64,000 nt of DNA from assembly GCF_003334355.1 (NCBI RefSeq), contig NZ_QOWP01000006.1, one strand, 5' to 3'. Source of the stretch: Escherichia coli (lineage in GTDB: Bacteria; Pseudomonadota; Gammaproteobacteria; Enterobacterales; Enterobacteriaceae). This document shows, one piece after another, positions 5,250 through 49,624 of this stretch (position 1 is the stretch's first letter; each line of letters opens with the position of its first letter). A program made the translations under genes and the position numbers. Under the pieces are notes generated by a model, which worked only from the letters and a program-made list of their open reading frames with translations, made no database searches and was not told where the DNA came from.

Positions 5250-5291
5250 GTCATACCACTCGCCTGATTATTTTTAGCTATGTTGGATTTT

Positions 5292-5318
5292 GCCACGGTT
5301 TATACCGTGGCTTTTTTT
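5292..5318 (+). terminator. Rho-independent terminator of allDCE operon
   Basis: GCCACGGT-TTAT-ACCGTGGC hairpin followed by TTTTTTT. Confidence 0.7.
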
Positions 5319-5326
5319 GTAACATT

Positions 5327-5431
5327 GCCTGATGCGCTTCGCTTATCAGGCCTACATGATCTCTGCAATATATAGAATTTGCGCGATTTTCAGGAAGGAT
5401 ATAGTACTCATGCCGCATCCGGCATGAGTAC
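5327..5431. repeat. REP element plus a 12-bp-arm perfect palindrome between allE and glxK
   Basis: GCCTGATGCGCTTCGCTTATCAGGCCTAC REP-like unit; AGTACTCATGCC-GCATCC-GGCATGAGTACT palindrome at 5402-5431. Confidence 0.6.
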
Positions 5432-17268: not shown

Positions 17269-18378
<1,110 letters not shown>

Positions 18379-18441
18379 TGGGCGGTATTCTGAAACGGCG
18401 ATTGTCGTGAGAACAGAATGGTTGCACCAGAATACAGATAT

Positions 18442-18478
18442 AAAAAAACCGACATGACAGTCGGTTTTTTTATTTTTT
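18442..18478. terminator. Bidirectional rho-independent terminator (selU on +; candidate sRNA on -)
   Basis: AAAAAAA-ACCGAC-ATGACA-GTCGGT-TTTTTTTATTTTTT; A-tract before and T-tract after the hairpin. Confidence 0.75.
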
Positions 18479-18530
18479 CCGCCCAAGACTTGGTGGTTCC
18501 GGGCAGAAATGAAACAGTCCTCATCTAGCA
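18442..18530 (-). ncRNA. Candidate antitoxin sRNA (~88 nt); its 5' end is antisense to a 16-nt element that recurs in the toxin leader
   Basis: Minus-strand promoter (-35 TTGAAT, 17-bp spacer, -10 TATAAT) puts the start near 18529-18533; transcript begins with the reverse complement of CAGTCCTCATCTAGCA (18515-18530) and ends at the bidirectional terminator. Confidence 0.4.
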
Positions 18531-18535
18531 AGTGA

Positions 18536-18564
18536 ATTATAAGTCAGGATGCCTACATATTCAA
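18536..18564 (-). promoter_or_regulatory. Predicted sigma-70 promoter of the candidate sRNA
   Basis: Minus-strand -35 TTGAAT (18559-18564), 17-bp spacer, perfect -10 TATAAT (18536-18541). Confidence 0.45.
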
Positions 18565-18680
18565 ACAGCTATGTTGGCGATACAATCCCGACGCTAGTAG
18601 TGATACTGCCTCAAGGGATTACCGCAGTGCGGAAAAGTACTTTTAAGTCCTGGTCAGGATACAGGTGGTGCTGATTCTGG

Positions 18681-18689
18681 TGCTCTAAT
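18681..18689 (+). promoter_or_regulatory. Predicted extended -10 promoter (TGcTCTAAT) for the toxin mRNA
   Basis: TGn + TCTAAT on the plus strand; predicted start near 18696, just 5' of the second 16-nt copy (18701-18716). Confidence 0.3.
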
Positions 18690-18789
18690 TTGGAGAGAGG
18701 CAGTCCTCATCTAGCACATGAAGAAAATCATAGTTACAGGCAACGTAAGGGTAAGCTGTGATTGTCTTTCTCCCTTAAGGGAGCAACGG

Positions 18790-18873
18790 ATGAAAACTTT
18801 TCTCGATAAAGTTCTCATCGTTCTTAAGGCGCTAATCGCGCTGCTGGAACTGATCCGTCAGTTTATTGAATAA
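18790..18873 (+). CDS. Candidate type I toxin: 27-aa hydrophobic peptide MKTFLDKVLIVLKALIALLELIRQFIE (DinQ-like)
   Basis: ATG 18790 with AAGGGAG SD 6 nt upstream; SD lies in a CTCCC/GGGAG hairpin; single predicted TM helix; own terminator downstream; core ALIALLELIR recalled as shared with DinQ. Confidence 0.5.
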   Translation: MKTFLDKVLIVLKALIALLELIRQFIE

Positions 18874-18944: not shown

Positions 18945-18976
18945 TCATATTTATTGCCAAAATGCACACTGTTCAT

Positions 18977-19074
<98 letters not shown>

Positions 19075-29347: not shown

Positions 29348-30280
29348 TCAGCCCTTAAACACGTTATAGCCGAGTTGCTTAGCGACCGATGCCACCATTT
29401 TTTGACCGCGAACACTGTTGCCTTCTTCGTCCAGCGGTGGTGAGAACGCGGCAATTCCCATCACGCCAGGGACGACCGCCAGAATACCGCCACCTACACC
29501 GCTTTTGCCCGGTAAACCAACGCGATACGCCCAATCACCGGAGCGACCATACAGCCCTTCCATCATCATTTCGGCCAGAATGTACGGCACGTTGTCGGCC
29601 TGAAGAACGCGTTTATGCGTCAGCGGATTCACACCACCCGCCGCCAGCGTCGCGCCAAGCGTTGCCAGTTCAACAGTATTGATGAGCGTGGAGCACTGAC
29701 GGGTGTACACGTCACAGGCTTCCATTGCATCACAATAGAGATATCCGGCGGAGTACAGCAGCCAGGCAATGGCCCGGTTATGGAAGTTGGTTGTTTGTTC
29801 CGACTGGTTGACTTCATCAGAGAGCGCTACCTGCTCACCAGCCAGTTGCTGTTGGATATGTAAAATTCGCTGCCAGCGTTGTTCAATATTTTCAGCGTTA
29901 ATCAGGCTGGTGGTGGCAATAGCGCCAGCATTTACCAGTGGCGACAGTGGTTTGCCGCCATGCAACTCTAAGGCGATAACTGAGTTAAAGGGCAATCCGG
30001 TCGGGTCAGCGCCAATTTTGTCCTGTACCGCCTGCGGGCCGACATCTTCTAACGCAAGGGCTAACGTACAGACTTTCGAGATGGATTCCAGCGCAAAGCG
30101 GTAATCACTATCACCCGCGCGATAGATGTTGCCATCGCAGGTCACAATAGCCACTGCTGCCAGTTGACCAGGTACATTCGCCAGAAAGGGAATGTAGTCG
30201 GCATTTTGTCCGCCATTAAGTGAGTGAAATTGGGTGTAAGCCTGATCCACTGCCTGCTGTAATTTGTTTGCATCTAACAT
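29348..30280 (-). CDS. glsA: Glutaminase 1 GlsA/YbaS (310 aa)
   Basis: 310-aa ORF MLDANKLQQAVDQAYTQFHSLNGGQNADYIP... Confidence 0.9.
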   Translation of the reverse strand: MLDANKLQQAVDQAYTQFHSLNGGQNADYIPFLANVPGQLAAVAIVTCDGNIYRAGDSDYRFALESISKVCTLALALEDVGPQAVQDKIGADPTGLPFNSVIALELHGGKPLSPLVNAGAIATTSLINAENIEQRWQRILHIQQQLAGEQVALSDEVNQSEQTTNFHNRAIAWLLYSAGYLYCDAMEACDVYTRQCSTLINTVELATLGATLAAGGVNPLTHKRVLQADNVPYILAEMMMEGLYGRSGDWAYRVGLPGKSGVGGGILAVVPGVMGIAAFSPPLDEEGNSVRGQKMVASVAKQLGYNVFKG

Positions 30281-30471
30281 CTTTTGTTAACTCCTTTTTA
30301 TAGATGCGGGAGGTAATTCCTCACCCCGGTGCCGATTTTCAGGCATCCTGATTTAACTTAGCACCTGCAACTTAACTACAGGAAAACAAAGAGATAAATG
30401 TCTAATCCTGATGCAAATTGAGCCAATTTTTTAATCTTTACGGACTTTTACTCGCCTGGTTTATTAATTTC

Positions 30472-30502
30472 TTGACCTTCCCCTTGCTGGAAGGTTTAAC
30501 CT
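30472..30502 (+). promoter_or_regulatory. copA promoter with CueR operator (-35 TTGACC, 19-bp spacer with ACCTTCC-N7-GGAAGGT dyad, -10 TAACCT)
   Basis: MerR-type 19-bp-spacer promoter read directly; dyad at 30475-30495. Confidence 0.85.
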
Positions 30503-30541
30503 TTATCACAGCCAGTCAAAACTGTCTTAAAGGAGTGTTTT

Positions 30542-33046
30542 ATGTCACAAACTATCGACCTGACCCTGGACGGCCTGTCCTGCGGTCACTGCGTTAAACG
30601 CGTGAAAGAAAGTCTTGAACAGCGCCCGGATGTGGAACAAGCGGATGTGTCTATCACTGAAGCGCACGTTACCGGGACTGCCAGTGCAGAACAGCTGATC
30701 GAAACCATCAAACAAGCGGGTTATGACGCATCTGTAAGCCACCCAAAGGCTAAACCGCTGGCGGAGTCATCAATCCCGTCGGAAGCACTGACAGCGGTTT
30801 CTGAGGCGCTTCCGGCAGCGACCGCCGATGACGATGACAGCCAGCAGTTGCTGCTGAGCGGCATGAGCTGCGCCAGCTGTGTCACCCGCGTACAAAATGC
30901 GCTGCAAAGCGTACCGGGCGTCACTCAGGCACGGGTAAACCTGGCGGAGCGTACTGCGCTGGTGATGGGCAGTGCCTCCCCACAAGATTTAGTGCAGGCG
31001 GTGGAAAAAGCGGGCTACGGTGCGGAAGCGATTGAAGATGACGCTAAACGCCGCGAGCGCCAGCAAGAAACCGCCGTAGCTACGATGAAGCGCTTCCGCT
31101 GGCAGGCAATTGTTGCACTGGCTGTGGGTATCCCGGTAATGGTCTGGGGGATGATCGGCGATAACATGATGGTCACCGCTGACAACCGCAGCTTGTGGTT
31201 AGTTATCGGCCTGATAACCCTGGCAGTGATGGTTTTCGCCGGCGGCCATTTTTACCGCAGTGCATGGAAAAGCCTGCTGAACGGTGCAGCGACGATGGAT
31301 ACGCTGGTGGCGCTGGGAACGGGTGTGGCGTGGCTCTATTCGATGAGCGTCAACCTGTGGCCGCAGTGGTTCCCGATGGAAGCGCGGCATCTTTACTATG
31401 AAGCCAGTGCGATGATTATCGGTCTGATTAATCTCGGCCATATGCTGGAAGCGCGCGCACGTCAGCGTTCTTCTAAGGCGCTGGAGAAATTACTCGATTT
31501 AACCCCACCGACGGCGCGAGTGGTCACCGCAGAGGGTGAAAAAAGCGTGCCGCTGGCGGAAGTTCAGCCAGGGATGTTACTGCGCCTGACGACCGGCGAT
31601 CGCGTGCCGGTAGATGGCGAGATTACCCAGGGCGAAGCATGGCTGGATGAAGCGATGCTGACGGGCGAACCAATCCCACAGCAAAAAGGCGAAGGCGAAA
31701 GCGTCCATGCCGGGACAGTGGTACAGGACGGCAGTGTGCTGTTTCGTGCCAGTGCGGTTGGCAGCCATACCACGCTGTCACGGATCATTCGCATGGTGCG
31801 CCAGGCCCAGAGCAGCAAGCCAGAAATCGGTCAGCTGGCGGATAAAATCTCAGCCGTATTTGTACCTGTGGTGGTGGTGATTGCGCTGGTCAGTGCGGCA
31901 ATCTGGTACTTCTTTGGTCCGGCACCGCAAATTGTTTATACCCTGGTGATTGCCACCACGGTACTGATTATCGCCTGTCCGTGTGCGCTGGGGCTGGCGA
32001 CGCCGATGTCGATTATTTCCGGCGTCGGGCGGGCGGCTGAGTTTGGCGTGCTGGTGCGGGACGCCGACGCGCTGCAACGCGCCAGTACACTCGATACCGT
32101 CGTGTTCGATAAAACCGGGACGCTGACCGAAGGGAAGCCGCAGGTTGTCGCAGTGAAAACGTTTGCTGATGTTGATGAAGCGCAGGCATTGCGTCTGGCG
32201 GCGGCACTGGAGCAAGGTTCCAGCCATCCGCTGGCACGGGCGATCCTCGATAAAGCAGGTGATATGCAGCTGCCGCAGGTCAACGGTTTCCGCACATTGC
32301 GCGGGCTGGGCGTGAGCGGTGAAGCTGAAGGTCATGCGTTATTGCTGGGCAATCAGGCGTTGTTAAATGATCAGCAAGTCGATACTAAAGCGATTGAAGC
32401 CGATATTTCAGCTCAGGCATCGCAAGGGGCAACGCCTGTGCTGCTGGCGGTTGACGGGAAAGCGGTAGCCCTGCTGGCAGTACGCGATCCGTTGCGTAGT
32501 GATAGCGTGGCGGCGCTGCAACGCCTGCATAAAGCGGGATATCGTCTGGTGATGTTGACCGGGGATAACCCAACCACCGCCAATGCGATCGCCAAAGAAG
32601 CCGGGATTGATGAGGTGATAGCCGGGGTGCTGCCGGACGGTAAAGCCGAAGCGATCAAACGTCTGCAAAGTGAAGGACGTCAGGTGGCAATGGTGGGCGA
32701 CGGCATTAACGATGCGCCAGCGCTGGCCCAGGCAGATGTCGGCATTGCAATGGGCGGCGGCAGTGATGTTGCCATTGAAACCGCGGCGATTACCCTGATG
32801 CGCCATAGCCTGATGGGCGTTGCGGATGCGCTCGCTATTTCCCGCGCAACGCTGCGCAACATGAAGCAGAACCTGCTCGGTGCCTTTATCTACAACAGCA
32901 TCGGTATTCCGGTCGCCGCCGGTATTTTGTGGCCGTTTACTGGAACACTGCTTAACCCGGTAGTTGCCGGAGCGGCAATGGCGCTCTCGTCGATTACCGT
33001 AGTGAGTAACGCCAACCGGTTGCTGCGGTTTAAACCGAAGGAATAA
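30542..33046 (+). CDS. copA: Cu(I)-translocating P1B-type ATPase CopA (834 aa)
   Basis: Two N-terminal GxxCxxC metal-binding domains, [16 protein letters not shown] motifs. Confidence 0.97.
30742..30754 (+). other. copA: Programmed -1 ribosomal frameshift site giving 70-aa CopA(Z) copper chaperone
   Basis: Slippery heptamer C CCA AAG at 30742-30748 (codons 68-69); -1 frame reads CCC AAA GGC TAA. Confidence 0.8.
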
Positions 33047-33103
33047 GTACGTCATTGCGGATGCGCTGCTTTAGGGCGGCGCATTTGGCATCGACGCATG
33101 ACT

Positions 33104-33238
33104 GCCGGATGCGGCGTGAACGCCTTATCCGGCCTACGGTTCAGGCACAAGTTTGTAGGCCTGATAAGACGGGTAAGCGTCGCATCAGGCAATGGTGCTC
33201 GGATGCCGGATGCGGCGTGAACGCCTTATCCGGCCTAC
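33104..33238. repeat. BIME cluster: three REP units in alternating orientation between copA and ybaQ
   Basis: GCCGGATGCGGCGTGAACGCCTTATCCGGCCTAC twice, flanking an inverted GTAGGCCTGATAAGACGGGTAAGCGTCGCATCAGGC. Confidence 0.85.
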
Positions 33239-33260
33239 GAGATGAAGCGATGTTTTGGCC

Positions 33261-33602
33261 TTACGCGACCTTTTTTGCACGCTCTTCACGGCGTGCCAAA
33301 TATTCAGCCACTGTTTCAATCCGTCCCAATTCTTCCTGGGTGCGCAGGTTGTTTTCAACTTCCCAAAGATCAACCGCCGCCTGGAGGTTTAGCCAAAAAT
33401 CGACTGTGGTATCAAAAACTTTCGCCAGACGAAATGCCATCTCAGTAGTGAGTTTACGATTGTTATTGATCAGTGCACTGACGCTATTACGATGAACATG
33501 CAGCAACTCTGCTAACTCATTGATTTTCAAATCGAGCGGTTCCAGATATTCATAGAGAAGAATATCTCCGGGTGTCGTCGGTTTTCTTGTTGCCTGTTTC
33601 AT
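33261..33602 (-). CDS. ybaQ: XRE-family HTH protein YbaQ (113 aa; HigA-antitoxin-like)
   Basis: ORF contains MKQATRKPTTPGDILLYEYLEPLDLKINELAELLHV... Confidence 0.85.
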   Translation of the reverse strand: MKQATRKPTTPGDILLYEYLEPLDLKINELAELLHVHRNSVSALINNNRKLTTEMAFRLAKVFDTTVDFWLNLQAAVDLWEVENNLRTQEELGRIETVAEYLARREERAKKVA

Positions 33603-33739
33603 GGTTTTTAACTGTTGCTTCCTTGTGAATAGCGATGCAAGAACATACTGAATCATACAAACACATTAAACAAGTCTCCAACTCCATTTGCGCCATCCCT
33701 CACCGCGCGCTAGCATGATATTTCACAAAGGGAGGTCGT

Positions 33740-34534
33740 ATGGATCTGTTGTACCGGGTAAAAACGCTTTGGGCCGCGCTGCGCGGTAATCATTACACCT
33801 GGCCTGCCATCGATATCACCCTCCCCGGCAATCGCCATTTTCATCTGATTGGCAGTATTCATATGGGTAGCCACGATATGGCTCCCCTGCCCACCCGTTT
33901 GCTCAAAAAGCTCAAAAACGCCGATGCGCTGATCGTCGAGGCGGATGTTTCCACCAGCGATACGCCTTTTGCTAATTTGCCTGCCTGCGAGGCGCTGGAA
34001 GAGCGCATTAGCGAGGAGCAACTCCAAAACCTGCAGCACATTAGCCAGGAGATGGGCATTTCTCCCTCACTCTTTTCTACCCAACCGCTGTGGCAAATCG
34101 CGATGGTTCTTCAGGCGACGCAGGCACAAAAACTGGGGCTGCGGGCAGAATACGGTATCGATTACCAGCTATTGCAGGCGGCGAAGCAACAACATAAACC
34201 CGTGATTGAACTGGAAGGGGCTGAAAACCAGATTGCCATGTTGCTCCAGCTCCCTGACAAAGGACTGGCGCTGCTGGACGATACGCTGACCCACTGGCAT
34301 ACCAACGCACGGTTGCTGCAACAAATGATGAGCTGGTGGCTGAATGCACCGCCGCAAAATAATGATATAACGCTGCCCAATACGTTCAGTCAGTCGCTGT
34401 ACGATGTGCTGATGCATCAGCGAAATCTCGCCTGGCGGGATAAATTACGCGCCATGCCGCCGGGGCGATATGTGGTCGCGGTCGGTGCACTACACCTGTA
34501 TGGAGAAGGGAATTTGCCGCAAATGTTGCGCTAA
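33740..34534 (+). CDS. ybaP: TraB-family protein YbaP (264 aa)
   Basis: 264-aa ORF divergent from ybaQ. Confidence 0.85.
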   Translation: MDLLYRVKTLWAALRGNHYTWPAIDITLPGNRHFHLIGSIHMGSHDMAPLPTRLLKKLKNADALIVEADVSTSDTPFANLPACEALEERISEEQLQNLQHISQEMGISPSLFSTQPLWQIAMVLQATQAQKLGLRAEYGIDYQLLQAAKQQHKPVIELEGAENQIAMLLQLPDKGLALLDDTLTHWHTNARLLQQMMSWWLNAPPQNNDITLPNTFSQSLYDVLMHQRNLAWRDKLRAMPPGRYVVAVGALHLYGEGNLPQMLR

Positions 34535-34616
34535 AAAAATGGCCAATATCGCTATTGGCCCGTCAAAGAGGAATTTCATTTTTTTATTATTATGCCGTCA
34601 CTTTAAGCGACGGTGT
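34533..34616 (-). ncRNA. chiX: ChiX (MicM/SroB) Hfq-dependent sRNA, ~84 nt
   Basis: Minus strand reads ACACCGTCGCTTAAAGTGACGGCATAATAATAAAAAAATGAAATTCCTCTTTGACGGGCCAATAGCGATATTGGCCATTTTTTT, matching recalled ChiX; ybaP-ybaK intergenic as in K-12. Confidence 0.85.
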
Positions 34617-34722
34617 AACTCGATTGTCGCTCAATCTCACCATCCTGCCAATACTCTTAGGCAAGATGACTCTTTTTTTTGGACCGCCATCAGGCGTATG
34701 CTTGCTTCGTTTTTTTGTTTAA

Positions 34723-35217
<495 letters not shown>

Positions 35218-35222
35218 GCATT

Positions 35223-35250
35223 GTGCCGGATGCAAACATCCGGCACTTTC
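35223..35250. terminator. Hairpin between convergent ybaK and ushA
   Basis: GTGCCGGATG-CAAA-CATCCGGCAC followed by TTTCGG. Confidence 0.55.
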
Positions 35251-35253
35251 GGA

Positions 35254-36906
35254 TTACTGCCAGCTCACCTCACCTTTCGGTTCATAAACACTCACATCCA
35301 GCGGCGAGCTTTTCTGGATATACGCTTTCAGCACTTCGGCATCAATAAAGCCGGTATTCACATAGCCCGGTTTGTTATCAAGGCGCGGATATCCATCACC
35401 GCCGGTGGCATTGAAGTTTAATGTCGCCATACGGTAAGTTTTCGCCGGATCGACCGGTTCGCCTTTGATTTTAAGGTCGTTCAGTTTGCCGTCTTTCGCC
35501 ACAAAGCTAACGTTGGCAAATTGCGGGTAGGCACCTGAATCTGGCTTCATCTGCGCGACGGCGGTCAGGTAATCAATCACCTCTTTACCGGTCATGTCGG
35601 CATACACCACCACATTGCCGAATGGCTGCACTTTCAGCACGTTTTTATAGCTGATATCGCCTGCTTCGATAGAATCACGAATTCCGCCTCCGCTCATCAC
35701 CGCAAAGTCGGCACCAGTGCGATCCATTTGGGCTGCCAGAATCAACCGCCCCATATTGGTCTGTACAAAACGCACTTTGTCACGATCGCCTTCCAGACGA
35801 CCATTGGTTTCGCCTATTTTCACTTCCAGCTGCGCTTTGCCTTTGTTCTGGAACGGTGATAACAGCGAGATCATTTGCTGGTTTTCAGCGATTTCAGGAG
35901 TGTAAAGCACGCGCTCGCTTTTCCCGTCTTCCCAGGTCACTTTCTTCTTCAGGTTCACCGGAATCAGCTGGTAGTTAACCATTTTCATTTCGCCATTACG
36001 AAACTCAAAATCAGCCCGTCCCACGTATTTGCCCCACTCATGCGCCTGCACAATCCAGATGCCGTTTTGTTGATCTGGTTTGCATGGCGTACCCGGCACG
36101 TAATCGACCTGTTTTTTGTTTTCTGCCGCCATGCAGACCGGATCTTGCGAGTGACCACCGACGATCATCGCCAGCGATCCGGCAGGCAGCGCGCGTGCCA
36201 TCTCCACATCGCCCGGTGCGTTAGAGCCGTGCTCACCATTATCGTAATGCCCCATATGGGTCGCCGCGATAATAATGTCTGGCTTTTCTGTCTGTTGCAG
36301 CTCCTGAATCACCAGCTTCGCTTCATCGGCGGGCTTACGAAATTCGATATCAGTGAAGTATTCCGGGTTACCAATTTTTGCTGTGTCATCGGTTGTCAGC
36401 CCAATAACGGCAATTTTCAGATCCTGACGCTTAAACAGCGCCCACGGTTTAAACAGGCGCTCGCCAGTACTTTTCTGGTAGATATTCGCGGAAAGCAACG
36501 GGAACTTGGCCCACTTTTCCTGCTGGCGTAATACGGTGAGCGGATTATCAAATTCATGATTACCGATCGCCATCGCGTCATAGCCCACCAGATTCATACC
36601 GCGAAAATCAGGTTCGGCATCCTGTAAGTCAGACTCGGGCACGCCAGTGTTAATGTCGCCACCGGAAAGTAGCAGCACGCTACCGCCTTCAGCCGCAACC
36701 TCTTTGCGGATACCATCCACCAGCGTTTTTTGCGCCGCCAGACCATATTCGCCATATTCATTGCGCCAAAAATGCCCATGATGATCATTGGTATGCAGAA
36801 CTGTAATTTTGTAGGTTTTATCCTGCTCATACGCCAGAGCAGTTTCACTCGCCAGTGTAAATGTGGTTAACAGCGCTAACGCCACGCCCCGCTGCAATAA
36901 TTTCAT
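35254..36906 (-). CDS. ushA: Periplasmic 5'-nucleotidase / UDP-sugar hydrolase UshA (550 aa)
   Basis: Signal peptide then metallophosphatase motifs (NDHHG, GNHEFD). Confidence 0.93.
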   Translation of the reverse strand: MKLLQRGVALALLTTFTLASETALAYEQDKTYKITVLHTNDHHGHFWRNEYGEYGLAAQKTLVDGIRKEVAAEGGSVLLLSGGDINTGVPESDLQDAEPDFRGMNLVGYDAMAIGNHEFDNPLTVLRQQEKWAKFPLLSANIYQKSTGERLFKPWALFKRQDLKIAVIGLTTDDTAKIGNPEYFTDIEFRKPADEAKLVIQELQQTEKPDIIIAATHMGHYDNGEHGSNAPGDVEMARALPAGSLAMIVGGHSQDPVCMAAENKKQVDYVPGTPCKPDQQNGIWIVQAHEWGKYVGRADFEFRNGEMKMVNYQLIPVNLKKKVTWEDGKSERVLYTPEIAENQQMISLLSPFQNKGKAQLEVKIGETNGRLEGDRDKVRFVQTNMGRLILAAQMDRTGADFAVMSGGGIRDSIEAGDISYKNVLKVQPFGNVVVYADMTGKEVIDYLTAVAQMKPDSGAYPQFANVSFVAKDGKLNDLKIKGEPVDPAKTYRMATLNFNATGGDGYPRLDNKPGYVNTGFIDAEVLKAYIQKSSPLDVSVYEPKGEVSWQ

Positions 36907-37123
36907 ACTTCTCTCCCTGACCTGATTTCAACGTGTTGAAAAATAGTATGACGCGACATCATAGACAAGTCTGCGTCCGGTGAAGATAAATCTGCATCCA
37001 GATTAGAAATTCTGTATTCGGCGTTGAGACTTCCTTCAGACGACGCATACAGGTATGTTAGTCTGGTAATAATCACAAATAAGATCATTCTTTACATCGC
37101 AACCCTGAAAAAGTGACTTTCCT

Positions 37124-38344
37124 ATGGCAATGAGTGAACAACCCCAGCCTGTGGCGGGCGCGGCTGCGTCAACGACCAAGGCCCGAACATCGTTTGGTAT
37201 TTTAGGTGCTATCAGCCTCTCACATCTGCTGAACGACATGATCCAATCGCTGATTCTGGCGATTTATCCGCTGCTTCAGTCAGAATTTTCTCTGACATTT
37301 ATGCAGATTGGCATGATAACCCTCACCTTCCAGCTCGCCTCTTCGCTACTGCAACCAGTGGTCGGCTACTGGACCGATAAATATCCGATGCCATGGTCGT
37401 TGCCAATTGGCATGTGCTTTACCTTAAGCGGTCTGGTGCTGCTTGCGCTGGCGGGCAGTTTTGGCGCAGTTCTGCTGGCGGCGGCGCTGGTCGGTACCGG
37501 TTCATCGGTCTTTCATCCGGAATCTTCTCGCGTGGCCCGTATGGCTTCCGGCGGGCGGCATGGCCTGGCGCAATCTATCTTTCAGGTCGGCGGCAACTTT
37601 GGCAGTTCCCTGGGACCCTTGCTGGCGGCGGTGATTATCGCGCCTTATGGCAAAGGCAACGTTGCCTGGTTTGTGCTTGCGGCACTGCTGGCGATCGTGG
37701 TGTTGGCGCAAATCAGCCGTTGGTACTCGGCACAGCACCGAATGAATAAAGGAAAACCCAAAGCGACGATTATCAATCCACTGCCGCGCAATAAAGTTGT
37801 ACTGGCGGTCAGCATTCTGTTAATCCTCATTTTCTCGAAATATTTCTATATGGCGAGCATCAGCAGCTATTACACCTTTTATCTGATGCAAAAATTCGGA
37901 TTATCTATCCAGAATGCTCAGCTTCATCTGTTTGCCTTCCTGTTTGCCGTTGCGGCAGGTACGGTGATCGGCGGGCCTGTAGGGGATAAAATTGGGCGGA
38001 AATATGTGATTTGGGGCTCTATCCTCGGCGTTGCGCCGTTTACGCTGATTTTACCCTACGCCAGCCTGCACTGGACGGGGGTTTTAACGGTGATTATTGG
38101 ATTTATCCTCGCTTCGGCATTCTCTGCCATTCTGGTCTACGCTCAGGAGCTGCTTCCAGGACGTATCGGTATGGTTTCTGGACTCTTTTTCGGTTTTGCT
38201 TTTGGCATGGGAGGTCTGGGAGCGGCAGTTCTGGGGCTTATCGCCGATCACACCAGCATCGAGTTAGTCTATAAAATCTGTGCTTTCCTGCCACTATTGG
38301 GGATGTTGACCATATTCCTGCCTGATAACCGGCATAAAGACTGA
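37124..38344 (+). CDS. fsr: Fosmidomycin resistance MFS transporter Fsr (406 aa)
   Basis: 406-aa 12-TM MFS ORF. Confidence 0.88.
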   Translation: MAMSEQPQPVAGAAASTTKARTSFGILGAISLSHLLNDMIQSLILAIYPLLQSEFSLTFMQIGMITLTFQLASSLLQPVVGYWTDKYPMPWSLPIGMCFTLSGLVLLALAGSFGAVLLAAALVGTGSSVFHPESSRVARMASGGRHGLAQSIFQVGGNFGSSLGPLLAAVIIAPYGKGNVAWFVLAALLAIVVLAQISRWYSAQHRMNKGKPKATIINPLPRNKVVLAVSILLILIFSKYFYMASISSYYTFYLMQKFGLSIQNAQLHLFAFLFAVAAGTVIGGPVGDKIGRKYVIWGSILGVAPFTLILPYASLHWTGVLTVIIGFILASAFSAILVYAQELLPGRIGMVSGLFFGFAFGMGGLGAAVLGLIADHTSIELVYKICAFLPLLGMLTIFLPDNRHKD

Positions 38345-40292: not shown

Positions 40293-40376
40293 GTAGGCAT
40301 GATAAGACGCGCCAGCGTCGCATCAGGCATCGAGAGCCAAATGCCAGATGCGGCGTGAACGCCTTATCTGGCCTAC
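40293..40376. repeat. REP pair between convergent ybaL and gsk
   Basis: GTAGGCATGATAAGACGCGCCAGCGTCGCATCAGGC and GCCAGATGCGGCGTGAACGCCTTATCTGGCCTAC. Confidence 0.8.
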
Positions 40377-47692: not shown

Positions 47693-49624
47693 TCAAATGG
47701 GGCGGATACTGTCTTCATCCAGCTCCGCATCGAAGAATCGACGCAGGGTCTGAATATTATTATCCGCAATAATGGACTCGCGCGCCTGCGCAAGTTTTTC
47801 TTCGTATATCGCCTGACGCCATTCCAGCGGCGTACGCACCGCGGGATTATCATCTTCAACGATAGTCAGTTCAACCGTTGAACCTTTTAACGTGCTCAAC
47901 GCTTCAGCCAGTTTTTGCTGTGCACCGCGGTTGTTCAAATGCCGCTGAGAGGTGCGCAAATGCAGACATACTGCGTTGTCGCTCTCCTCTTTCCAGGCAT
48001 TTAAGGCCACCTGTTCGACCAGTTTTGGTAGCGAAAGTTGGCTAACCTGTGCCGCCCACGCGTCGCGCTCAATGGCTTCTGCCGCCAGCTTCGCCGCCAG
48101 TTCCGGCGTTTTTTCATGTTCCAGCGCTTTTTTCAGCGCCTTCGGCGTGGCGACCACTTCTTTTTGCTGCATCACCGGAGTGGTCGCCTTCCAGCGATAC
48201 GCTTCTTTTTTAGCTGGCGCTTTTTCCAGCGCCGATGGCACCGGACGCGCCTGAACGCGATCGGTGACCGAAGCCAGTCTTTCCAGCGCAGCGTTATTCA
48301 CCGGCCGCGCGCGGGTAGCGGCTGCCGGTTCACTCTTTTTTGCTTTGGTTGCTCCCTGCACGCGCTGCAACTGCTGGCGCGCCGCCAGCACCTGGCTGGT
48401 GGTTTCCGGGAGCGGTACAGTCGGAGCCTGCTGCGGCGCTGATTGCGGTTGCGGCGGCACCTGGGTTGGCGTCATTACTGCCGTTGGTGCGACAGGTGCA
48501 AAGGACTGGCGTGGCACTTCTGGCTCAGGCAGCGGCATACGCGGATGGAATGCCAGCGCGCGCAGCAGCGTCATCTCAACGCCCATGCGGCGGTCCGGCG
48601 CATACGGTAATTCTTTGCGACCAATCAACAGCGTCTGATAGTAAAGCTGAATATCCGTCGGCGGTATGGTGCGCGCCAGTTCACGCATCCGCAGCTCGAT
48701 GGCGGCCATGTCGTTGCCAAGTGCAGCAGGCGAAAGTTGTACCATCGCAATACGATGCAACAGACCGAGCATTTCCACCAGCAACGCTTCCCACTCGATA
48801 CCACGGGCAGCGGCTTCATTAATCAGCGCCATTACGCGCTCGCCGTTGGCCTCGACCATCGCTTCAACCAGCGACAGCGCCTGATCGTCGTCAAGCGTAC
48901 CCAGCATCGCACTGACCGCCTGGGTTGAAACCTGGCCGTCACCGCTGGCAATCGCCTGGTCGGTCAGACTTAAGGCATCTCGCAGGCTGCCTTCAGCGGC
49001 GCGCGCCAGCAATTGCAACGCCCGCGGCTCGTGAGCGATATGTTCTTCGTTGAGGATGTGCTCAAGCTGATGGCGAATTTGCTCGACATCCAGCGCCTTG
49101 AGATGAAATTGCAGACAGCGTGACAAAATCGTCACCGGCAATTTCTGTGGATCGGTCGTCGCCAGCAGAAACTTAACGTGCTCCGGCGGCTCTTCAAGGG
49201 TTTTTAACAGTGCGTTAAAGCTGTGGCGCGACAGCATATGCACTTCGTCGATCAGATAAACTTTGAAACGACCACGCGCCGGAGCGTACTGGACGTTATC
49301 CAGCAGGTCGCGGGTATCTTCAACTTTGGTGCGCGAGGCGGCGTCGATTTCAATCAGATCGACAAAGCGCCCCTGCTCGATTTCACGACAGTTATCGCAC
49401 ACGCCGCACGGCGTCGCGGTAATGCCGGTTTCGCAGTTTAGCCCCTTCGCCAGCAGTCGGGCGATAGAGGTTTTTCCGACGCCACGGGTGCCGGAAAAAA
49501 GATAAGCATGATGAATACGCCCTAACGACAAGCCGTTCGCCAGTGCGGTCAGCACATGTTCCTGGCCGACGACGTCAGCAAAGGTTTGTGGGCGCCATTT
49601 TCGGGCTAAGACCTGATAACTCAT
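47693..49624 (-). CDS. dnaX: DNA polymerase III tau subunit DnaX (643 aa); gamma made by frameshift
   Basis: AAA+ Walker A GTRGVGKTS; 643 aa. Confidence 0.97.
   Translation of the reverse strand: MSYQVLARKWRPQTFADVVGQEHVLTALANGLSLGRIHHAYLFSGTRGVGKTSIARLLAKGLNCETGITATPCGVCDNCREIEQGRFVDLIEIDAASRTKVEDTRDLLDNVQYAPARGRFKVYLIDEVHMLSRHSFNALLKTLEEPPEHVKFLLATTDPQKLPVTILSRCLQFHLKALDVEQIRHQLEHILNEEHIAHEPRALQLLARAAEGSLRDALSLTDQAIASGDGQVSTQAVSAMLGTLDDDQALSLVEAMVEANGERVMALINEAAARGIEWEALLVEMLGLLHRIAMVQLSPAALGNDMAAIELRMRELARTIPPTDIQLYYQTLLIGRKELPYAPDRRMGVEMTLLRALAFHPRMPLPEPEVPRQSFAPVAPTAVMTPTQVPPQPQSAPQQAPTVPLPETTSQVLAARQQLQRVQGATKAKKSEPAAATRARPVNNAALERLASVTDRVQARPVPSALEKAPAKKEAYRWKATTPVMQQKEVVATPKALKKALEHEKTPELAAKLAAEAIERDAWAAQVSQLSLPKLVEQVALNAWKEESDNAVCLHLRTSQRHLNNRGAQQKLAEALSTLKGSTVELTIVEDDNPAVRTPLEWRQAIYEEKLAQARESIIADNNIQTLRRFFDAELDEDSIRPI
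48301..48354 (-). other. dnaX: dnaX programmed -1 frameshift cassette (A AAA AAG, downstream stem-loop, upstream AGGGAG)
   Basis: Plus strand shows CTTTTTT at 48335-48341; palindrome CCGGCCGCGCGCGGGTAGCGGCTGCCGG at 48301-48328; -1 frame gives ...KKE then UGA. Confidence 0.85.

Follow-up and report, generated by a model that had tools for sequence, protein, structure and literature searches.

The minus strand of the window from 34616 to 34533 carries chiX, the gene for an 84-nt trans-acting small RNA (sRNA) whose dependence on Hfq is known from the K-12 literature. We hold this identification to be practically certain. The window is the whole 64,000-nt stretch of Escherichia coli contig NZ_QOWP01000006.1 that was analysed. 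The gene is not new, and the copy in this window does not differ from the reference. Few enterobacterial sRNAs are better characterised than ChiX, and the finding has little importance except for annotation, where it closes a gap, as most PGAP-annotated E. coli genomes show no feature at chiX. The small addition made here concerns the junction of chiX with the stop codon of the convergent gene ybaP, which is kept across most of the Enterobacterales genera sampled, with a few lineages extending ybaP into or through chiX.

Identity and Genomic Context

The minus strand of the segment reads ACACCGTCGCTTAAAGTGACGGCATAATAATAAAAAAATGAAATTCCTCTTTGACGGGCCAATAGCGATATTGGCCATTTTTTT. In an Rfam scan of the whole window, it matches RF00368 (sroB) from 34616 to 34533 with 82.1 bits (E = 1.8e-10) over model positions 1-83 of 83; the gathering score of that family is 44 bits. 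The initial annotation had placed ChiX at this position and strand and had named an Rfam scan as a check, and the full-length match is found under the older family name. SroB, MicM, RybC and ChiX are synonyms for one RNA (PMC4098024, PMC3384567). The segment is identical at 84 of 84 nt to chiX of K-12 MG1655 (b4585, 507204..507287), and published 3'-end mapping in K-12 agrees with it (see below). Both strings that had been quoted in support of the identification are present: ACACCGTCGCTTAAAG occupies the 5' end at 34616-34601, and the terminator string GGCCAATAGCGATATTGGCC lies at 34560-34541, followed by an A and then T7 at 34539-34533. Nothing contradicts the ChiX identification.

The location between ybaP and ybaK, also as first annotated, agrees with the open reading frame list and with K-12, and these two genes are the flanks of chiX in the literature (PMC3384567, PMC4355480). 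The gene order is that of K-12 reversed: copA (+), ybaQ (-), ybaP (+), chiX (-), ybaK (+) and ushA (-), with chiX on the strand opposite to both of its neighbours. The order ybaK-micM-ybaP is conserved in many enterobacteria, Proteus excepted (PMC4355480). Since the 401-bp stretch around chiX is found in 5423 of 5426 complete E. coli genomes, the observation of chiX here is far beyond chance. The PGAP annotation under the 401-bp match consists of ybaP and ybaK only, with no chiX feature. In complete E. coli genomes, the ybaP-chiX-ybaK stretch is matched 5428 times, and two of these matches are in records classed as plasmids. The coordinates of the features are collected in Table 1.

Table 1. 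Features of the chiX locus and other Rfam matches in the window.
Feature	Position	Strand	Basis and remarks
chiX (sroB/micM/rybC), 84-nt transcript	34533..34616	-	Rfam, K-12 identity, Term-seq; 5' end A34616, 3' end last U 34533
ybaP, TraB/GumN family, 264 aa	33740..34534	+	ORF list, RefSeq annotation of identical DNA, K-12 b0482; convergent with chiX
ybaK, Cys-tRNA(Pro)/Cys-tRNA(Cys) deacylase, 159 aa	34738..35217	+	divergent from chiX, 121-bp spacer
chiX predicted sigma-70 promoter	34623..34651	-	-35 TTGGCA 34651-34646, 17-nt spacer, -10 GACAAT 34628-34623; putative function, from position
ChiX 5' stem-loop, nt 4-22	34595..34613	-	MFE fold; 8 bp, 3-nt loop
ChiX A/U-rich single-stranded linker, nt 23-44, CAUAAUAAUAAAAAAAUGAAAU	34573..34594	-	unpaired in MFE fold; ARN repeats
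ChiX C/U-rich seed, nt 45-58, UCCUCUUUGACGGG	34559..34572	-	complementarity to K-12 chiP and chbB-chbC
ChiX terminator hairpin, nt 57-76, GGCCAAUA-GCGA-UAUUGGCC	34541..34560	-	terminator scan and fold; 8-bp stem
ChiX U7 tail, nt 78-84	34533..34539	-	sequence, Term-seq 3' end; contact for Hfq proximal face (PMC6348989)
Weak terminator-like hairpin and T-run	34691..34716 (site 34691-34704)	+	consensus scan only; 5-bp stem
DnaX ribosomal frameshifting element	48296-48360	-	Rfam, 96.8 bits, above gathering
STnc480	5256-5322	-	Rfam, 87.6 bits, above gathering
ES036/CssrF	5348-5390	-	Rfam, 38.1 bits, barely above threshold
Second naRNA4/REP element	40296-40373	-	Rfam, 74.3 bits, above gathering

Promoter, Fold and 3' End

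The predicted chiX promoter is the only promoter-like site that a promoter scan returns between 34300 and 34900. Judged by sequence, with the transcription start taken from the K-12 annotation, its -10 element ends 7 nt before the +1 at A34616. The minimum free energy fold of the whole RNA (z = -3.9) consists of two hairpins, with the linker and the seed left open. The 3' end has been mapped in K-12 by Term-seq (Adams et al. 2021, PMC7815308) at 507287(+), which corresponds to window position 34533, with scores from 4.5e5 to 9.6e5 over three growth conditions; the end is labelled there as "primary: chiX; antisense: ybaP".

ChiX is described as a class II Hfq binder, and according to the K-12 literature, its polyU tail occupies the proximal face of Hfq and its ARN repeats the distal face (PMC6348989). 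Both hallmarks of that class, the U-tail and internal ARN repeats, are visible in the window sequence. The class is a mechanistic one and not a sequence family, and the seeds and targets of its other members are unrelated. MgrR and CyaR are two of those members.

Target Pairing and the Chitosugar Circuit

The partners known for ChiX, chiP and the chb operon, lie outside the window, and the K-12 copies were used to compute pairing. ChiX nt 45-56 (UCCUCUUUGACG) form 12 perfect base pairs with CGUCAAAGAGGA in the chiP leader (-21.0 kcal/mol), a stretch that spans the Shine-Dalgarno sequence and ends 8 nt upstream of the chiP (ybfM) AUG. The chbB-chbC spacer, which is the published decoy for ChiX (PMC4098024), pairs over a greater length, with 12 perfect base pairs to nt 47-58 plus a second contact to nt 37-43 (-28.1 kcal/mol). 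These values come from the longest Watson-Crick stretch combined with a seed-only duplex. They replace RNAduplex runs of full-length ChiX against the chiP leader and the chbBC spacer, which returned unrealistic long-range duplexes. A mononucleotide shuffle is a weak control for 12-bp matches, since A and T runs pair by chance, and 4 of 500 shuffles reach 12 bp.

The published model (PMC4098024, PMC7815308, PMC6348989, PMC4355480) fits the observed sequence features. In that model, drawn from K-12, ChiX is made constitutively and silences chiP, the gene of a chitin-sugar porin. Upon induction of chb by chitosugar (chitobiose), the chbBC spacer pairs with ChiX and leads to its decay, and chiP is freed. 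ChiZ, a fragment of the chiP 5' UTR, also acts as a sponge for ChiX (PMC7815308). The chiP leader is found in 5425 of 5426 complete E. coli genomes, and the chbB-chbC spacer in 5405 of 5426. Since both partner sites are thus present in nearly all E. coli genomes, we infer that the window's strain probably runs the same circuit. Its expression, Hfq binding and regulation would be those documented in the literature for the identical K-12 sequence, the pairing and structural elements being the part seen here.

Conservation in the Enterobacterales

At least 120 homologous loci were retrieved with the ChiX core AAATTCCTCTTTGACNGGCC from contigs of one genome per species. Nearly all of the matches listed have ybaK upstream and divergent and ybaP convergent. 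The seed is invariant in every locus listed, which is partly built into the sample since the retrieval used a seed-plus-GGCC pattern. The informative signal comes from the stems of the two hairpins. In the terminator stem, RNAalifold finds compensatory changes from AU to GC at two of the six consensus pairs, in 8 and 5 sequences, respectively, spread across genera. The terminator stem was also the only one that RNAalifold recovered from a MAFFT alignment of 42 diverse homologues, in which the 5' hairpins fell out of register because of lineage-specific indels. The 5' hairpin was therefore analysed sequence by sequence. Among the matches listed, it has at least 5 bp in 90 of 94 distinct 5' parts from other species, which use 64 different arm sequences and have a mean z of -3.0. 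The alignment also conserves ATAA and A-rich columns in the linker, and at least three consecutive ARN triplets occur in 69 of 117 listed loci.

Conservation of the promoter follows lineage. A -10 of the form GnGAnAAT is present in 78 of 117 listed loci from other species, and in 58 of these a TTGGCA -35 precedes it with 17-18 nt between the two. Another 32 of the 117, in Serratia, Yersinia, Rahnella and Hafnia, have a -10 of the TACCCT type. These four genera have a different 5' hairpin as well and keep the seed and the terminator. On sequence comparison, the constrained part of ChiX appears to be its regulatory 3' half.

Could the segment be something other than an sRNA gene? One alternative would read the hairpin and T-run merely as a shared or bidirectional terminator, or as the 3' UTR of ybaP, with no independent gene. 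The hairpin does abut the ybaP stop, with an A7 run ahead of it on the ybaP strand. However, past the hairpin, that strand continues with CGTCAAAGAG, which holds 1 T in 10 nt, unlike the tail of an intrinsic terminator, and the U7 is on the chiX side only. The very strong 3' end that has been mapped belongs to the other strand. The minus strand further carries the promoter-like site, the covarying 5' hairpin and the conserved seed upstream of it, and both Rfam and the K-12 annotation treat the segment as an sRNA gene. A pure ybaP terminator is excluded by these observations, and we give it next to no chance. A bidirectional intrinsic terminator was rejected on the placement of the U-tract; convergent gene pairs that share such an element have the same layout, with a single hairpin at the junction, but they need a U-tract both ways. 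A full-text search of the literature for ChiX as a bidirectional terminator gave only an unrelated use of the phrase. The other alternative, a small-protein gene, is equally remote. Mechanically, the frames exist: 29 codons from the AUG at ChiX nt 38-40, and on the plus strand ORFs at 34470-34754 and 34555-34722. However, the ChiX-sense frame has no Shine-Dalgarno sequence, meets no stop within the RNA and runs beyond the mapped transcript end. Pantoea lacks its AUG (AAAC there), and in Yersinia and Serratia the AUG is frame-shifted. Between lineages, the linker and the 5' hairpin differ by gaps whose lengths are not divisible by three, and the changes are compensatory for RNA pairing. A small protein is excluded on these grounds.

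The Junction with the ybaP Stop Codon

The ybaP frame ends with ATG TTG CGC TAA at 34523-34534 of the plus strand. Its stop codon (34532-34534) has two bases, 34533-34534, in common with the ChiX U7 tail, and the K-12 annotation has the identical 2-base overlap between chiX and ybaP at 507286-507287. It had been proposed initially that the template of the U-tract overlaps the ybaP stop, and this is correct to the extent of these two bases.

The same arrangement recurs widely. In 90 of the 120 Enterobacterales loci listed, the U-tract gives its two final T's to the ybaP TAA, and in 5 more, all Pantoea, a TGA gives a 1-base overlap. Among the matches listed, the junction is kept even in genera whose YbaP identity has dropped to 54-62%. 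The other loci depart from this pattern. In three that are listed (Kosakonia sp. S29, Enterobacter sp. ENT03 and the metagenome-assembled genome UBA3516), a G comes after the T-run; ybaP there is longer by five codons (QKNGQ), which lie antisense to the ChiX U tail and 3' stem arm, and its stop codon is within the terminator loop. In Phytobacter massiliensis, the predicted ybaP ORF passes antisense through all of chiX, adding ~31 aa; this extension could be real or could reflect a homopolymer sequencing error. About 16 of the listed loci have gaps of 1-217 nt between ybaP and chiX, and in four Proteus species among the matches listed, chiX is located elsewhere. The sharing of the stop codon with the U-tail is an old, conserved and compact convergent junction. 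It is also the plain outcome of a T-run followed by A, read on the other strand. Its conservation would matter only if the junction proves regulatory.

Transcription across the Junction

On the ybaP strand, neither hairpin of chiX is followed by a U-tract: the terminator hairpin runs into the T-poor sequence given above, and TGTAACTCG comes after the complement of the 5' hairpin. The terminator scan finds no intrinsic terminator for ybaP within chiX. The first terminator-like site downstream of the ybaP stop is the weak one at 34691-34704, beyond chiX and its promoter. Since a polymerase leaving ybaP meets no canonical intrinsic terminator inside chiX, read-through antisense to chiX is plausible, unless Rho or a head-on collision with chiX transcription stops the polymerase. 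The initial annotation had stated outright that ybaP is transcribed antisense through chiX. The missing terminator makes that statement plausible, but the data surveyed show neither a ybaP-sense 3' end nor such a transcript to go with it, and the published Term-seq list has no ybaP-sense or ybaK 3' end in any condition (PMC7815308). The SMRT-Cappable-seq supplements make no mention of ybaP or ybaK transcript ends or operon structure.

In the other direction, there is a Rho-dependent region at K-12 507468(+), approximately window position 34352 on the minus strand, antisense inside ybaP and downstream of the chiX terminator (Rho score 3.71, p = 4e-10; PMC7815308). Upstream and downstream reads there are 1492 and 22 in untreated cells, versus 2100 and 115 with bicyclomycin (PMC7815308). 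From these counts, read-through of the chiX strand into antisense ybaP is small, a few per cent, and limited by Rho. RIL-seq tables (PMC10954441) also list a minus-strand entry, "ybaP.EST3UTR", at K-12 507215-507289 (window 34531-34605, plus strand), antisense to ChiX, whose Hfq chimeras have ArcZ and SdsR among their partners. The authors assign this entry to ChiX, and it amounts to ~0.2% of the ChiX signal (~9.8e3 versus 5.3e6 reads; PMC10954441). Either a rare but genuine antisense RNA or strand leakage could account for it.

These observations bear on the question of whether chiX and ybaP form a functional sense/antisense pair in addition to the trans role of ChiX. Transcripts of ybaP running through chiX would then be anti-ChiX RNA, or chiX transcription and its read-through would damp ybaP, and the overlap would be a sign of coupling. 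The wide retention of the shared stop codon, even with strongly diverged YbaP, is in its favour, as are the lack of an intrinsic terminator for ybaP in chiX, the Term-seq call of the ChiX 3' end as antisense to ybaP with a Rho-dependent region inside that gene, and the minus-strand reads in Hfq chimeras. However, the overlap is only two bases long and is just what a T-run and a following A produce. Gapped loci exist, and Proteus moved chiX yet kept the ChiX-chiP-chb circuit. Term-seq lists no ybaP-sense 3' end, the minus-strand RIL-seq reads are compatible with leakage from a very abundant RNA, and the chiX-strand read-through is small. We consider a functionally coupled pair of this kind unlikely. 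The reading that the junction itself marks the coupling, with ybaP run-on yielding a cis-encoded and perfectly complementary anti-ChiX RNA or with constitutive convergent chiX transcription keeping ybaP low, seems to us decidedly unlikely. If coupling were true, the anti-ChiX RNA would be a third sponge beside chbBC and ChiZ, and the Hfq-associated minus-strand reads would be real. We retain the reading of chiX as a trans-acting sRNA gene.

Comparison with Known Systems

The nearest known system is ChiX of E. coli K-12 and Salmonella (RF00368); the window copy agrees with it in length and strand relations, in its neighbours, in where the promoter lies, in terminator and seed, and in complementarity to the targets. 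The sRNA itself shows no differences from K-12, whereas the surrounding window does: it is a mosaic with 99.96% identity from ushA to ybaQ (33103-37820) and only 96.8% on the copA side (29921-33239). MicM of Proteus mirabilis shares the seed, UGAAAAAUUCCUCUUUGACUGG, as well as the circuit: repression of ImpR, the ChiP homologue, depends on Hfq and is lifted by the chbBC spacer (PMC4355480). Its 5' part is different, and its gene lies between copA and PMI2174, where it is not convergent on ybaP and has no stop-codon overlap. The four Proteus loci in our sample were recovered by the seed pattern. ChiX also resembles other sRNAs controlled by decoys or sponges (RybB with 3'ETS-leuZ, RbsZ, FtsO) in that its activity is set by competing RNAs, here the chbBC spacer and ChiZ, and not by its own transcription. 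The decoys are specific to each sRNA, and those of ChiX are outside the window.

Other Features of the Window

The break in the mosaic coincides with a REP-type repeat (Rfam naRNA4 match at 33158-33235), of which another copy is near 18975-19010. Beside mnmH, an Rfam match to AgrB (RF02891; 18440-18528, minus strand, 53.6 bits) adjoins a gene annotated by RefSeq as dinQ, a damage-inducible type I toxin. The K-12 dinQ/agrAB locus is at a different place, between arsR and gor. The 601-bp dinQ/AgrB stretch of the window (18200-18800) is found in only 1315 of 5426 complete E. coli genomes, and it looks like an accessory second toxin-antitoxin locus of the dinQ/agrB type.
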